Assembly (NCBI GenBank): GCA_013178305.1 | Contig: JABLXB010000001.1 | Coordinates: 656,253-688,252, forward strand | DNA length: 32,000 nt | Source of the DNA: Bacillota bacterium | GTDB lineage: Bacteria; Bacillota; Sulfobacillia; JABLXB01 | Direction: 5' to 3' | Part shown: in pieces, positions 7,599-12,714 of the stretch | How positions within the stretch are numbered: the first letter of the stretch is position 1 | Layout: each line of letters begins with the position of its first letter | Translations under genes and position numbers: made by a program | Notes under the pieces: generated by a model | The model's database searches: none | What the model was told of the DNA's origin: nothing | The model's input: only the letters and a program-made list of their open reading frames with translations

Positions 7599-7650
7599 TT
7601 CACTCCGGCTTTTCCCCAGCGTAACCGCCTATTTACCTTTTTCTCTCGTG

Positions 7651-7668
7651 ACGGCACGCGCCTTGCTT
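7651..7668 (+). promoter_or_regulatory. Sigma-54 (-24/-12) promoter
   Basis: acGGCACGcgccTTGCTt. GG (7653-7654) and GC (7665-7666) have the canonical 10-nt separation, matching TGGCACG-N4-TTGCW except T>C before GG. It lies 53 nt after the sigma-54 activator gene and ~110 nt before the first operon gene. Confidence 0.75.
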
Positions 7669-7778
7669 TGGTGTCATACCAGGATGCCGGCGGCTCTCAC
7701 CGGCGCCGGCGGGACCGTGGCTCAGGGCCGTGGATCACCGGCAGGGCTTCACCATAGCGTGAGGAGGTGCACCGTGCG

Positions 7779-8432
7779 ATGCTCGGGACTCTCAGGGCGG
7801 AAGTACTTCACACGGCGAGGTCGCTGCGTGACCTCGGGCTTGTGTCTCTCGCCGGCGGGACCGTGTGCGCGCGAGACCGGGAGACCGGCCTGGTGGCGAT
7901 CACGCCGTCCGGGGTCGATTACTTCGAGATAACCTCCCCTGACGGGATATGCGTCGTCGATCTGGACATGCGGCTGGTGGACGGGCGGTACAAGCAGTCC
8001 ATCGCGACGGACATGTTTACGCGCATCCTCAAGGCGCGACCTGACGTGGGTGCGGTGATACACACTCACTCCCCGTTCGCCACCGCGTTCTCGTGCTGCG
8101 ACGAGCCGTTACCCGTCCTCACGACGACGCACGCGAACATCGCCGGCGGCCCCGTGCCCGTGGTAGTCCCCCTCCACCCCGGCGCCCACACCGGGGACTA
8201 TCTCGACAACATAGTCACCACCATGGGAACGGGCTATGCGGTGAACCTCAGCCATCACGGTCCGGTTGTCGCCGGGCGGGATCTCGAGCACTGCCTGGCC
8301 GTGGCCATAACCGTCGAGGACACCGCCAGGATCGCGGCCATCGCGCGCCGATTGGGCGGCGCGACTCCGCTCGACGCAGCCCAGACGAGAATCGCATTCG
8401 AGTATTACAACACCAAGTACGGACAGAGGTGA
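7779..8432 (+). CDS. Class II aldolase/adducin-family protein (L-fuculose-1-P aldolase / L-ribulose-5-P 4-epimerase-like)
   Basis: Track ORF 7767-8432. ATG at 7779 lies 12 nt after GAGGAGG, whereas GTG 7767 abuts the SD. GLVAITPSGVDY...VIHTHSPFATAFS contains the HxH zinc motif of the AraD/FucA family. Confidence 0.8.
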   Translation: MLGTLRAEVLHTARSLRDLGLVSLAGGTVCARDRETGLVAITPSGVDYFEITSPDGICVVDLDMRLVDGRYKQSIATDMFTRILKARPDVGAVIHTHSPFATAFSCCDEPLPVLTTTHANIAGGPVPVVVPLHPGAHTGDYLDNIVTTMGTGYAVNLSHHGPVVAGRDLEHCLAVAITVEDTARIAAIARRLGGATPLDAAQTRIAFEYYNTKYGQR

Positions 8433-8737
8433 AAGGAGGGTCCGGTACGAGAAAGCTGGTGATCGTAGTGTGCGGAGCGGGAATCAACACGTCCACGGCT
8501 GCCAGGGATTTCATCATGGAAGAGCTGGCCAGACGCAAGATCGGCGACGTCGAGATCAAGCACGTGCTGCTGGGCGACATCGAGCGCTATCGCGGCCAGG
8601 CGAGCGTCATAGTGCCGATGGTCAACGCGAACTTCGATTTCGGCGTCCCGGTGGTAAAAGGCATGGTATTCCTTATCGGGAGACGGGCGGACAAGGTAAA
8701 GGCAGTCGATGAAATCGTACAGCACCTCAGCACTTAG
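8429..8737 (+). CDS. PTS EIIB component, galactitol (Gat/Lac-Cel fold) type
   Basis: RKLVIVVCGAGINTSTAARDFIMEEL resembles E. coli GatB ([20 protein letters not shown]) and includes the phospho-Cys. Start assumed at the GTG overlapping the aldolase stop (GTGA). GTG 8459 is an alternative. The track ORF 8093 start lies inside the upstream gene. Confidence 0.8.
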   Translation: MKGGSGTRKLVIVVCGAGINTSTAARDFIMEELARRKIGDVEIKHVLLGDIERYRGQASVIVPMVNANFDFGVPVVKGMVFLIGRRADKVKAVDEIVQHLST

Positions 8738-8769
8738 CAGTACCGGAACGAACGAAGGGAGGACGTGAA

Positions 8770-10594: not shown

Positions 10595-10617
10595 ATCCTC
10601 CAAAGAAGGCTGATCGT

Positions 10618-11754
10618 ATGGCTACCGCGAGAGATAGGGTGCTCGCCGCCCTCGACCATAAAGAGCCGGATCGTGTCCCACTGTGCCTCGGGGCGTCCGG
10701 TGCGAGTGTGACCGATGCCGTGTATTTCGCCTTGAAGACGCATTTCGGCATCGAAGGTGACGTGGAACCGTTCCGCAGCGGGCACGGCGACAACATATAC
10801 GACCCCCGCGTGTTCGACAAGATGGGCTGCGACTTCAGGCACGTGTTCCTGAAGTCGTCCCTGGCGTACAAAGCCCCGGTACTCCCCGACGGGAGCACCG
10901 TAAATGAGTGGGGCGTAGCGGTCAAGAAAGTCGGGATATTCAACGAATGGGTGAGTCACCCGTTGCAGCACGCGTCGCTCGCGGACCTCGACTCCTACCC
11001 GTGGCCCAAACCATACGAAGGACAGCGGGACCGCGGGCTGAAACAGACCACCCTCGACTACTACGAGAACACCGGATTCGCCATAGCCACGAGGTCGCCA
11101 TCGAGGGGGTTGTTCGATCTTGCTATACAGCTGCGCGGCTTCAGCGAGTTCGCGCTCGACCTCTACACCAACAGGAGGTTCGCCTCGGTGCTGCTGGGCA
11201 AGATCAACGAGGTGTTGATGGCTTTCTACGACGTGCTCCTCGACGACACCGGCCCCTACGTGCACATCGTCGAAACCCAGGACGACATGGGTCACCAGAA
11301 CGGGCCGTTCTTCTCGCCCAAGACGTTCAGGGAGTTTTTCAAGCCTCTCAGGCGGGAACTCAACGCGTTTATAGGGCGAAAGGCACCGAACGCCCGAATC
11401 TACCTCCACTCGTGCGGGGCCGTGAGCGAGTTCATAGACGACCTGATCGACTGTGGGATTCAGGTGCTCAACCCGGTGCAGCCGCTGGCGCGAGGCATGG
11501 ACACGACAACCCTGAAGCAGCGGTACGGCGCGGCGCTGACCTTCCACGGGGCGATCGACCTGCAGCGCGCACTGGCCGGCACGCCGGAGGACGTGGAACG
11601 AGAGGTCAAGACGAGGGTACGCGACCTGGCCCCCGGCGGCGGATACATCCTGTCCCCCGCGAACGTCGTCCAGGCCGATGTCCCGGTAAGCAACCTCATA
11701 CTGCTCTTTGACCTGGCGAGGAGGTACGGCGCCTATCCGATCTCAGTCGGGTGA
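10618..11754 (+). CDS. Uroporphyrinogen-decarboxylase (URO-D) family protein, MtaA/MtbA/CmuA-like corrinoid methyltransferase candidate
   Basis: 378-aa ORF. N-terminus RDRVLAALDHKEPDRVPL is typical of URO-D/MtaA-like proteins. Adjacent to a corrinoid protein, which favours methyltransferase rather than HemE function. AAGAAGG SD 8 nt upstream. Confidence 0.75.
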   Translation: MATARDRVLAALDHKEPDRVPLCLGASGASVTDAVYFALKTHFGIEGDVEPFRSGHGDNIYDPRVFDKMGCDFRHVFLKSSLAYKAPVLPDGSTVNEWGVAVKKVGIFNEWVSHPLQHASLADLDSYPWPKPYEGQRDRGLKQTTLDYYENTGFAIATRSPSRGLFDLAIQLRGFSEFALDLYTNRRFASVLLGKINEVLMAFYDVLLDDTGPYVHIVETQDDMGHQNGPFFSPKTFREFFKPLRRELNAFIGRKAPNARIYLHSCGAVSEFIDDLIDCGIQVLNPVQPLARGMDTTTLKQRYGAALTFHGAIDLQRALAGTPEDVEREVKTRVRDLAPGGGYILSPANVVQADVPVSNLILLFDLARRYGAYPISVG

Positions 11755-11758
11755 TCCG

Positions 11759-12073
11759 GTGGGAACCGCGCGCAGAGCGCGGCTGCCCCTAATACTCGTG
11801 GCGGGGGGCTCGTGCGGCAACGCGATGCAGCGAGCCGCCGAGCGCATCAGGCAGGCCTCCGAAAGCGCGGGCGTTCAGGCGCAGGTGCTCATCCAGAACC
11901 TCTGGGAGCGGGCCGAACCGGATTCGCGCGCCGACGTGATCGTCCAGATGTTCCCGTTCTTCTCCGCGCTGGATGTCCCTGTGCTGGACGGAAGGCCGTT
12001 CATCCTCGGCAAGGGCGAGGACGAGCTGCTCGCCAGGATACTCTCACTGATCTGCGAGGAGGCACGACAATGA
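11759..12073 (+). CDS. Small EIIB(Gat/Cel)-fold-like protein with displaced cysteine (function unknown)
   Basis: RLPLILVAGGSCGNAMQRAAERIRQASESAGVQAQV...DVIVQ aligns by eye with GatB ([24 protein letters not shown]...). It has Ala at the phospho-Cys position and a Cys 3 residues later. GTG 11759 is 4 nt after the URO-D stop. Its stop overlaps the corrinoid-protein ATG (ATGA, 12070-12073). Confidence 0.5.
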   Translation: MGTARRARLPLILVAGGSCGNAMQRAAERIRQASESAGVQAQVLIQNLWERAEPDSRADVIVQMFPFFSALDVPVLDGRPFILGKGEDELLARILSLICEEARQ

Positions 12074-12714
12074 CCTGCGCTGCCGTGGAACGAGTCGCGA
12101 AGGCACTAGAAGAACTGGATATCGAGAACGCACGCTCCATCGTCGAACAGGCGGTCGCAGACGGTGTTCCGCCCGCGGCCATCCTGGAGGAAGGGCTCAT
12201 CGCCGGGATGTCCCGCATCGGCGAGAAGTTCCGGAACAACGAGGTGTTCTTGCCCGAGGTGATCGTGGCTGCCAGCATATGGTCGGACGCAATGAAATCG
12301 CTCAGCCCTTTCCTCGCCAGCGAGGCGACCCTGAGCCGTGGGAAGGTGGTAATCGGCACGGTCAAGGGCGACATCCACGACATCGGCAAGAACCTCGTGA
12401 AGGCGATGCTGGAGGGCGAGGGGTTCAGCGTCGTCGACCTCGGGGTGGATGTCACCCCGGAGAGATTCAGGGACGCGGTTGTCGAGCACAAGCCGGACGT
12501 ACTGGCGATCTCGGCGCTGCTTACCACGACCCAGGCCGAAATACCGGTGACTATCCGCTATCTCGAACGGGAAGGGGTACGGCGCAACGTCAAGATAATC
12601 GTGGGTGGAGCCCCTATCACACATTCGTGGGCGCTGTCGACCGGAGCGGATGGCTGGGCTCCCGATGCGCGGACCGCTGTGGATGCGGTCAGGGCGCTTC
12701 TTGGGAAACCTTGA
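12070..12714 (+). CDS. Corrinoid (cobalamin-binding) protein, MtaC/MtbC-like
   Basis: 214 aa from ATG 12070. Helical cap region (ILEEGLIAGMSRIGEKFRNNEVFLPEVIVAA) followed by a Rossmann B12 domain with DxHxxG (KGDIHDIGKN), SxL (ISALLTTT) and GG (IIVGGAP) signatures. Confidence 0.9.
   Translation: MTCAAVERVAKALEELDIENARSIVEQAVADGVPPAAILEEGLIAGMSRIGEKFRNNEVFLPEVIVAASIWSDAMKSLSPFLASEATLSRGKVVIGTVKGDIHDIGKNLVKAMLEGEGFSVVDLGVDVTPERFRDAVVEHKPDVLAISALLTTTQAEIPVTIRYLEREGVRRNVKIIVGGAPITHSWALSTGADGWAPDARTAVDAVRALLGKP

Follow-up and report, generated by a model that had tools for sequence, protein, structure and literature searches.

Outside the methanogens, corrinoid-linked methyl transfer has been described in the Type 1 mlp clusters of non-methanogenic anaerobes, which encode MtaA-like proteins together with a corrinoid protein as well as an activase of the Ram/RACE type (Kountz and Balskus, bioRxiv 2023, PMC10418091). 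These clusters contain no tetrahydrofolate methyltransferase and have been proposed to carry out thiol/selenol methyl chemistry, and a Sec-lyase/NifS-like gene appears in the legend of the gene-cluster figure (PMC10418091). MtaA-like proteins outside methanogens move methyl groups from methylcobalamin to selenide or sulfide (PMC10418091), a precedent for the reading proposed below. Here, we describe an operon in which genes of a similar kind are joined to a phosphotransferase system (PTS). It lies in a 32,000-nt stretch of DNA, referred to as the window, from assembly GCA_013178305.1 (contig JABLXB010000001.1, positions 656,253-688,252 of the forward strand; lineage Bacillota; Sulfobacillia; JABLXB01). 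At window positions 4599-12714 (+), the gene of a LevR-type sigma-54 activator and a -24/-12 promoter are followed by seven co-directional genes encoding, in order, a class II aldolase/epimerase, an EIIB, a GatC-type EIIC, an EIIA, a protein of the uroporphyrinogen decarboxylase (URO-D) fold, a small protein of GatB fold and a DxHxxG corrinoid protein.

Methylated sugars include 4-O-methylglucuronate, 2-O-methylxylose and -fucose, 6-O-methylgalactose and the methyl-inositols, and we know of no described enzymology for their demethylation without oxygen. The known carbohydrate demethylases, at least as set out in PMC6292453, are oxygen-dependent cytochrome P450s. We propose, tentatively and at somewhat less than an even chance, that this operon directs the corrinoid-dependent demethylation of a methylated sugar delivered by the PTS, by way of the URO-D protein and the Co(I) state of the corrinoid protein. 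It would be a catabolic operon, activated through sigma-54 and LevR, for a methyl-bearing sugar or possibly a sugar alcohol or sugar acid. The galactitol-family PTS (EIIA, EIIB and EIIC) would import and phosphorylate the compound, the URO-D-fold enzyme would demethylate the sugar derivative and load the methyl group onto Co(I) of the MtgC/MttC-like corrinoid protein encoded beside it, and the class II aldolase/epimerase would pass the unmasked sugar phosphate on to central metabolism. Proteins encoded outside the window, elsewhere in the genome, would have to unload the methyl-corrinoid and reactivate it by reduction. The GatB-fold Cys protein, which is paired in gene order with a NifS-type desulfurase in most relatives, may tentatively be seen as a carrier of a thiol or persulfide that works on the acceptor side. 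We infer that the PTS sugar is the donor, that transfer runs from sugar to corrinoid and that the small protein has this role.

A PTS operon with genes of a methyl-transfer type

The proteins of the window were searched against Pfam and NCBIfam, the window was scanned against Rfam, and partner genes were sought by tblastn. A preliminary description of this DNA had put forward seven co-directional genes with tiny gaps or overlaps, and its coordinates hold at or within a few bases: the aldolase and EIIB genes overlap in GTGA (8429-8432), 4 nt separate the URO-D and small-protein genes (11755-11758), and the small-protein and corrinoid genes overlap in ATGA (12070-12073); the overlaps mark translational coupling. 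No terminator-like sites were seen on the (+) strand between the operon genes. The seven family assignments were borne out as well, six of them by Pfam and NCBIfam and that of the small protein by a family profile together with AlphaFold2 (AF2) and Foldseek. In the NCBI annotation, the last three products are a uroporphyrinogen decarboxylase (NPV69629.1), a hypothetical protein (NPV69630.1) and a corrinoid protein (NPV69631.1).

The URO-D-fold protein as a divergent relative of MtaA

The URO-D-fold protein (NPV69629.1; 10618-11754, +) matches PF01208 with E 5e-21 in its C-terminal half alone, and its NCBIfam matches to MtaA/CmuA are weak (E 1e-10, 38-41 bits against cut-offs of at least 235). 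A sequence search of the PDB gave MtaA of Methanosarcina mazei (4ay7; 18-19% identity) as its sole match, with LHSCG aligned opposite LHICG and SPAN opposite PGCG. An AF2 model built from 30 homologues (pLDDT 94) and its Foldseek matches both point to the (beta/alpha)8 fold of the family. The top Foldseek match is again 4ay7 (E 7e-16, TM 0.66-0.74), followed directly by HemE structures at 12-16% identity and then by MetE. We rejected HemE as the identity of this protein: the hidden Markov model (HMM) for hemE, TIGR01464, gave no match at E <= 0.01, and the gene context is one of sugar catabolism, not haem synthesis. The preliminary description had placed this URO-D homologue in a methyl-transfer module, and the absent hemE match, the weak MtaA/CmuA matches and the MtaA structure as best match all speak against grouping it with HemE.

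Among 120 homologues, His264, Asp72, Asp223, Gln288 and Asp314 are invariant, and Cys266 is kept in 95%, the others having Asp there. Residue 349 is mostly Asn (83%), otherwise His (12%) or Ser (5%). Because the third zinc cysteine of MtaA is replaced by Asn, a thiolate-activating zinc site is unlikely, and the predicted His/Cys/Asn metal site would be harder than the zinc site of MtaA, whose His/Cys/Cys ligands serve thiolate activation. A harder site would suit an enzyme that activates a methyl group on oxygen by Lewis-acid catalysis, and would equally suit a metalloenzyme that is not a methyltransferase. We propose the former, and infer that the protein is the substrate-side methyltransferase, transferring from sugar to corrinoid.

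A corrinoid protein of the methyltransferase-cognate type

The last gene of the operon (12070-12714, +) encodes a candidate methyltransferase-cognate corrinoid protein (NPV69631.1) with a B12-binding_2 cap (PF02607, E 9e-18) and a Rossmann B12-binding domain (PF02310, E 1e-28). Its translation contains the expected motifs, DIHDIG (DxHxxG), SALLTTT (SxL) and VGG (GG). The NCBIfam matches to an MtgC-type model (E 4e-60) and to TIGR02370 (E 2e-51; 174 bits against a cut-off of 215) are both below the model cut-offs. Its nearest homologues are 50-58% identical, and those of the syntenic loci described below are no nearer, at 41-60%.

Those of its best-matching homologues whose gene context was traceable come from carbohydrate loci. 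One of these, L089:641-5933 (Logan SRR14702244), contains a corrinoid gene (product 53% identical to the window's), an MtaB-family gene, a GH67 alpha-glucuronidase and a URO-D gene from a different clade, set between ABC transporter genes; the other, L090, has a LacI regulator, a corrinoid protein and RACo. GH67 enzymes free 4-O-methylglucuronate from xylan. The first of these loci thus looks like a corrinoid methyl-transfer system beside an enzyme that releases a methylated sugar, 4-O-methylglucuronate, and this independent cluster lends plausibility to the corrinoid-dependent demethylation of sugars as a wider theme.

A TIM barrel together with a DxHxxG Rossmann domain is also the architecture of adenosylcobalamin (AdoCbl) mutases, and the corrinoid protein weakly matches mutase small subunits (NCBIfam, E 1e-13). 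The chemistry could accordingly be reversed or not involve a methyl group at all: a sugar phosphate or sulfur could be methylated, in the latter case turning cysteine-derived sulfur into a methylthio compound, or the TIM barrel and the B12 protein could catalyse an AdoCbl-type rearrangement. The NifS and Cys-protein pair of the relatives could supply sulfur for a C-S bond. We consider all of this very unlikely. The B12-binding_2 cap and the stronger matches to MtgC, MtbC and MetH-type models (E 1e-60 to 1e-39) point to methylcobamide chemistry, RACo-type activases, which reduce Co(II) to Co(I), accompany the relatives, no methyl donor system is present, and LevR/sigma-54 PTS operons are catabolic as a rule.

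Related PTS-type loci point to a fuller version of the system

The contigs of URO-D homologues with 59% identity or more were located, and one further locus (L094, with a URO-D protein 33% identical) was added through the small protein. A GatC-type PTS stands together with a window-type URO-D gene at 10 distinct loci across the Bacillota: the window itself, L001 (Clostridium sediminicola SH18-2), the metagenome contigs L003, L091, L092 and L093, three metagenome-assembled genomes (MAGs), namely L006 (Syntrophomonadaceae), L007 (Clostridiales) and L009 (Lachnospiraceae), and the distant contig L094. The small protein is encoded at all 10, the aldolase/epimerase at 9 and a NifS/IscS-type cysteine desulfurase at 8, the window and L006 being without it. 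A corrinoid gene is present at 7 of the 10, and the gene association that the preliminary description had singled out is thus found in related genomes. The desulfurase matches NifS with E 9e-129 and keeps the catalytic Cys loop, and in L003 its gene overlaps that of the small protein. As protein identities between the loci are only 30-70%, the shared gene order does not stem from recent copying. The adjacency of the Gat-PTS, URO-D and small-protein genes is not accidental. Most of the loci have a LevR-type activator; L006 and L094 have a SorC-type regulator instead.

In L093, the genes run EIIB, EIIC, EIIA, URO-D, small protein, NifS, corrinoid protein, RACo, HisJ-type phosphatase, second URO-D, DeoC-fusion, glyceraldehyde-3-phosphate dehydrogenase (GAPDH) and EI. 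The RACo of this locus (830 aa) is AcsV/RamA-like, and the second URO-D protein reaches 181 bits against the MtaA/CmuA model and shows the complete zinc motif, LHTCG...TGCD, where the window-type protein has LHSCG...PANV. In L003, genes for a URO-D/thioredoxin fusion, a CobW-like GTPase, a 211-aa protein and RACo stand directly 5' of the activator gene; homologues of the 211-aa protein are found in L093, as the extension at the N-terminus of RACo, and in L092, as the product of the gene after the corrinoid gene. Some relatives thus appear to bring two methyltransferase activities, a carrier and an activase together in one operon, of which the window would hold a reduced version. The preliminary description had called the module incomplete or unconventional. 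Neither an activase nor a second methyltransferase is indeed encoded in the window, but the worry is eased by the relatives, whose operons contain or adjoin genes for RACo and for another member of the URO-D family. HPr and EI genes are also not in the window; they are adjacent to the operon in L091 and L093.

Downstream enzymes in the relatives comprise 4-epimerase-like, ribulose-phosphate 3-epimerase, KGPDC-like and DeoC-like proteins, GAPDH and a pyruvate dehydrogenase (PDH)-type complex, a set that suggests a route by way of a pentulose or hexulose phosphate and not a polyol. The operon has no polyol-phosphate dehydrogenase. Genes for pyruvate/acetoin-dehydrogenase-type E1 alpha/beta and E2 (and E3), often with a lipoate-protein ligase, repeatedly follow or lie inside the operons of relatives (L001:15788-20486; L092:14424-19121; L006:13590-14552; L096:6603-9974, a locus described below) and are absent from the window. 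In the stretches that carry the additional genes of L093 and L003 (L093:3983-13115; L003:1-4018), the 211-229-aa family mentioned above occurs as a separate protein or as an N-terminal part of RACo.

A small GatB-fold protein with a shifted cysteine

The gene between those of the URO-D-fold and corrinoid proteins (11759-12073, +) encodes a 104-aa protein (NPV69630.1) with an invariant GGxCG motif (Cys19) and no match in Pfam. A nine-sequence profile of its family matched the GatB structures 1tvm (E 1.5e-5, over the full length) and 5gqs (E 1.2e-4), and both were also the top Foldseek matches of an AF2 model (pLDDT 87; TM-scores 0.58-0.75). The protein had earlier been called EIIB-like, which holds for the fold but not for the active site: Gly16 occupies the position of the GatB phospho-cysteine, and the family's sole invariant Cys, Cys19, lies three residues past it, at the N-terminus of helix 1. 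It also has the NifS-type partner in relatives. An exhaustive HMMER search across 1.84 billion representatives found only 30 clusters at E <= 1e-3, about 20 with GGxCG and the rest ordinary GatB; the small protein belongs to a rare family with a shifted cysteine. A C-X5-R phosphatase-like loop was considered and dropped, Arg25 not being kept across the wider GGxCG family.

The small protein could act in at least three ways. First, since a canonical EIIB is already encoded in the operon and the desulfurase gene comes next at 8 of the 10 loci, our favoured guess, made tentatively, is a thiol or persulfide carrier on the acceptor side. By analogy with the methylation of sulfide and selenide by the MtaA-like Mlp2 (PMC10418091), it could then serve as a sulfur-based methyl sink. 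Other ideas are that it provides a ligand in trans for the URO-D metal, or that it is the phosphoryl donor for a hydroxyl group unmasked by demethylation.

The sulfur-handling genes also bear on another explanation, in which the substrate itself is an S-methyl compound, for example a 5-methylthio-pentose or -pentulose derived from methylthioadenosine. An MtsA-like URO-D protein would carry out both half-reactions between thioether, corrinoid and thiol, and the aldolase would act like the methylthioribulose-1-phosphate aldolase of the dihydroxyacetone phosphate (DHAP) shunt. This would explain how one methyltransferase can suffice, the window having one methyltransferase and one corrinoid protein, and MtsA/MtsB is reportedly a two-protein precedent, from Tallant and Krzycki. 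The His-x-Cys motif is retained, the NifS-type desulfurase and the Cys protein are tied to the PTS version, and class II aldolases include MtnB and Ald2 (the MtnB HMM matches the window's aldolase weakly, E 3e-12). Moreover, MtaA-like clusters of non-methanogens have been proposed to act on methyl-S/methyl-Se compounds (PMC10418091). We nevertheless judge an S-methyl substrate to be quite improbable: the third Cys ligand of the thiol-activating enzymes is missing, there is no MtnA-type isomerase and no MtnK, and L093 has a separate canonical MtaA-type protein. To our knowledge, neither FGGY kinases nor Gat-type PTS act on methylthioribose.

Other uptake systems and the wider URO-D clade

The URO-D and corrinoid genes also occur together outside PTS operons. 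At L096:1789-14740 (URO-D 59% identical to the window's), genes all running in one direction encode an Rbs-type ABC transporter, PDH/acetoin-type E1-E1-E2, URO-D, an FGGY kinase, a ribulose-phosphate 3-epimerase, an OMPdecase-family protein and a corrinoid protein, with neither the small protein nor NifS. L016, from Acididesulfobacillus acetoxydans, combines an ABC transporter, an FGGY kinase, two URO-D proteins, a zinc-dependent alcohol dehydrogenase (Zn-ADH) and a corrinoid protein, and L095 has a SorC regulator, an ABC transporter, an iron-dependent alcohol dehydrogenase (Fe-ADH) and URO-D, with another URO-D and corrinoid pair 9 kb away. In the Bathyarchaeota, L073 and L084 carry genes for a corrinoid protein, RACo, URO-D and a corrinoid protein. 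The strongest argument for joint action of the window-type URO-D protein and a corrinoid protein is that their genes are paired again and again whichever of these uptake systems is present. The Bathyarchaeota relatives are not the published "novel MT1 MtgB", since bathyarchaeial MtgB is a protein of about 300 aa without homology to known methyltransferases (PMC10989822).

A genome scan for the URO-D clade gave 349 relatives, of which 80 were kept, from the Bacillota, Chloroflexota, Acidobacteriota, Actinomycetota, Spirochaetota, Planctomycetota, Kiritimatiellia, Thorarchaeota and Bathyarchaeota. The bacterial pattern is a sugar ABC transporter, an FGGY kinase, URO-D and sometimes a Zn-ADH, under a DeoR or SorC regulator; a spirochaete locus has DeoR, Zn-ADH and URO-D. 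In a gut version whose URO-D protein (44% identical) occurs on more than 20 contigs (L087:5225-9893), the genes encode PfkB, EIIA, a fructose-type EIIBC, URO-D and DeoR, with no corrinoid gene, and this is a second, independent union of the clade with a PTS. Within the subclade at least 53% identical to the window's URO-D protein, a corrinoid gene is present at 9 of 12 loci. Gene context thus ties the URO-D clade firmly to sugar uptake and phosphorylation, and indicates corrinoid dependence for this subclade and scattered others alone. In the Thorarchaeota (L049-L081), the neighbourhood of URO-D is conserved, and its genes encode a RraA-like protein, a class I/II aminotransferase, PfkB, a glycyl-radical enzyme, an FAD oxidase with a CCG Fe-S protein, and an APC permease; at three of these loci a corrinoid gene lies about 7 kb off.

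On a bolder reading, the window-type URO-D proteins would be demethylases of sugars or sugar phosphates that depend on a corrinoid, and would form a large family that has gone unrecognised. Spread over many phyla, it would allow anaerobic growth on the methylated sugars of plant and algal cell walls. Where a PTS is involved, cysteine-derived sulfur on the EIIB-fold thiol or persulfide carrier would take up the methyl group, giving methanethiol-type products. Taken whole, we regard this reading as unlikely. That the operon in the window stands for some widespread, unrecognised enzyme family has a fair chance of being right.

Weighing the proposed demethylation

Several observations weigh against a corrinoid-dependent demethylation of a PTS-delivered sugar. 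By tblastn, the window contains no gene for a RACo activase, a second URO-D methyltransferase, a NifS cysteine desulfurase, CobW or E1, and it offers no methyl acceptor. No corrinoid gene is found in the available sequence of L001, L091 and L094, three of the 10 PTS-type loci; the first of these is from the cultured C. sediminicola SH18-2, which has the operon and no corrinoid gene in the 20.7 kb examined. The corrinoid proteins of the syntenic loci are not mutual closest relatives, and since they are no closer to one another than to other homologues, the corrinoid gene seems to have been recruited repeatedly rather than strictly co-inherited. The URO-D protein scores far under the cut-offs of the MtaA-type models (TIGR01463, 38 bits against 235; PRK06252, 41 against 244), and of the MtaA zinc motif, His-x-Cys...Cys, it keeps His264-x-Cys266 and has Asn349 (in PAN) in place of the third Cys. 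The small protein and NifS are found solely alongside a GatC-type PTS and, as they are absent from L096, would not be required for the URO-D/corrinoid step. In the wider clade (35-50% identity; FGGY-URO-D, fructose-type PTS and Thorarchaeota loci), most loci have no corrinoid gene within 10 kb. Finally, alkyl methyl ethers are poorer methyl donors than aryl ethers.

Much of this would suit a URO-D protein that needs no corrinoid and is instead a metal-dependent sugar-phosphate enzyme (for example a decarboxylase, isomerase or epimerase) acting on the compound as soon as the PTS or an FGGY kinase has phosphorylated it, with the corrinoid gene a loose passenger or engaged in another reaction. 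The wider clade is found mainly in a context of a transporter, FGGY (or PTS), URO-D and sometimes Zn-ADH, and the metal site, His/Cys(Asp)/Asn(His), is unlike the thiolate-activating His/Cys/Cys of MtaA. The enzyme after which the fold was first known, HemE, decarboxylates without a cofactor, and the OMPdecase/KGPDC-like, ribulose-phosphate 3-epimerase and 4-epimerase-like AldII proteins of the relatives recall an ascorbate/L-xylulose route, which needs a decarboxylase. The three PTS-type loci without a corrinoid gene fit this explanation as well. However, a corrinoid protein, RACo and a canonical MtaA-type partner recur near the clade in unrelated lineages and beside different uptake systems (L093, L003, L096, L016, L095, L073 and L084), a corrinoid-independent enzyme would leave the corrinoid proteins of L093 and L016 without a substrate-side methyltransferase, and L096 has an OMPdecase-family decarboxylase of its own. 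We regard this explanation as unlikely, though a serious contender.

Corrinoid-dependent demethylation of the PTS sugar is thus the reading that we prefer. Of the overall picture given in the preliminary description, the operon structure, the sigma-54/LevR control and the protein families stand; what it did not convey is that the URO-D protein belongs to a large sugar-linked clade, mostly without a corrinoid gene nearby. If the proposal is true, corrinoid methyl transfer would reach carbohydrates, beyond C1 compounds, methylamines and aryl ethers, and thousands of genes annotated "uroporphyrinogen decarboxylase" would gain a function. Sugar fermentation would be linked to B12 demand and possibly to the formation of volatile methyl-sulfur compounds, and a PTS EIIB domain would have been recruited to a role other than phosphotransfer.

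Sigma-54 control, PTS and aldolase genes

The activator (4599-7598, +) has the make-up of a LevR-type sigma-54 enhancer-binding protein: an AAA+ domain with a GAYTGA loop, seen in the translation, followed by PRD, EIIA-Man-like and C-terminal EIIA_2 domains (Pfam Sigma54_activat, PF00158, E 5e-40; PRD; EIIA-man; PTS_EIIA_2). Its open reading frame was listed from 4140, and choosing ATG 4599 removes an overlap with the divergent gene. The best NCBIfam match is DagR (E 1e-137, far under the model cut-off), a name that in the literature returned solely an unrelated, retracted paper on a LacI-family protein. In the 169-bp gap between activator and first gene lies the -24/-12 promoter cGGCACgcgccTTGCt (7652-7667, +). 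The domains and the promoter agree with the LevR-like activator and near-consensus -24/-12 element of the preliminary description: GGCAC-N5-TTGC has a single match in the 32 kb (7653-7666, +), with 0.34 expected by chance over both strands of the whole window, and the placement of this sole match is therefore far beyond chance. The window's promoter reads cGGCAC rather than TGGCAC. In relatives, TGGCAT/C-N5-TTGC occurs at the same place in L009 and just 5' of the activator gene in L001, L003, L007 and L009.

The first gene (7767-8432, +, starting at GTG 7767 or ATG 7779) encodes a class II aldolase/L-ribulose-5-phosphate 4-epimerase-like protein (PF00596 Aldolase_II, E 2e-40). Its best NCBIfam match is the L-ribulose-5-phosphate 4-epimerase subfamily (153 bits against a cut-off of 251), and all epimerase and aldolase models stay below cut-off. 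The three PTS genes that follow have the marks of the galactitol family: a PF03611 EIIC, the active-site Cys of EIIB and the active-site His of EIIA_2. The GatB-type EIIB (8429-8737, +) carries the canonical cysteine in VVCGAG (PF02302, 23.4 bits against a cut-off of 23.6; NCBIfam GatB, E 3e-8). The EIIC (8770-10032, +) is a galactitol (GatC) family permease, above the Pfam cut-off for PF03611 (E 3.5e-60), and is GatC-like but no equivalog, since it reaches 350 bits on TIGR00827 (E 2e-104) against a cut-off of 542. The EIIA (10058-10594, +) has its histidine in AIPHAG (PTS_EIIA_2, PF00359, E 1.4e-26; NCBIfam GatA, E 6.5e-15); its homologues are 151-166 aa long, and its true start is probably GTG 10118. 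Between EIIC and EIIA lies a very stable intercistronic hairpin without a T tract (10042-10086, +), with a minimum free energy of -51.2 kcal/mol for 10030-10100 (z -5.4 against shuffles), which may be a processing or stabilising element. The Rfam scan found no family in the window and, in particular, no cobalamin riboswitch.

Neighbouring genes

Divergent from the activator, at 1277-4450 (-), are genes for a PK_C-like protein, a cupin-type glucose-6-phosphate isomerase, a PHP-domain protein and RapZ. None is conserved beside the operon in relatives, and the PHP-domain protein was rejected, on comparison, as an orthologue of the HisJ-like PHP protein of L093. On the other side, a block at 12736-25773 (-) converges on the operon and has a G+C content of 0.52-0.60 against about 0.63. 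It encodes an M24/creatinase-like protein, a xylose-isomerase-like TIM barrel, a 218-aa protein, a UPF0047 protein, a D-serine-dehydratase-like protein and a YhfZ-type regulator, as well as an FGGY kinase, two short-chain dehydrogenases/reductases (SDRs), a cyclase and an Rbs-type ABC transporter. This block is possibly an acquired sugar or amino-sugar island.

Comparison with known systems

Our literature search for corrinoid or URO-D genes with a PTS or with methylated-sugar use found no description of this combination; its parts are of known kinds, and their combination is new relative to the searchable literature. The methanogen systems MtaA/MtbA/MtsA with MtaC/MtbC/MtsB share with the operon the URO-D fold, 4ay7 as the best PDB match, His-x-Cys at the same place and an adjacent gene for a cap-plus-Rossmann DxHxxG corrinoid protein, to which relatives add a RACo/RamA-type activase. 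The window's protein differs from MtaA in its 18-19% identity, in HMM scores far under the cut-offs and in the Asn at the third zinc Cys, and its gene lies within a bacterial PTS sugar operon, with no coenzyme M involved. The mlp clusters contain several Mlp paralogues about 30% identical to MtaA and no sugar genes, whereas the window's URO-D protein has diverged much further and is linked to transporters and kinases of sugars; the terms PTS, phosphotransferase and sugar are absent from the text of PMC10418091.

In the proposed model, the operon would also resemble the bacterial O-demethylases, in which a URO-D-superfamily methyltransferase (MT I of the OdmB/VdmB/MtvB type) loads a corrinoid protein, and, as in the three- and four-component O-demethylases, the second methyltransferase and ATP-dependent activase of the relatives would complete the cycle. 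The O-demethylases, however, act on aryl methyl ethers with tetrahydrofolate as acceptor, while the window couples the genes to sugar uptake with no pterin-binding MT II, and the operons of relatives contain sulfur-handling genes. No O-demethylase MT I came up when the PDB was searched with the window's URO-D protein, by sequence or by structure. Like the Gat-PTS operons of Bacillota under LevR activators, the operon has EIIA, EIIB and a GatC-type EIIC, an AAA+/PRD/EIIA activator, a -24/-12 promoter and a class II aldolase/epimerase. It departs from the described Gat operons in having no polyol-phosphate dehydrogenase and in its extra URO-D-fold, GatB-fold Cys and corrinoid genes. The small protein, finally, shares its fold and length with GatB (1tvm, 5gqs), and differs from it in the Gly at the phospho-Cys position, the GGxCG cysteine three residues on, the canonical EIIB encoded in the same operon and the desulfurase partner in relatives.

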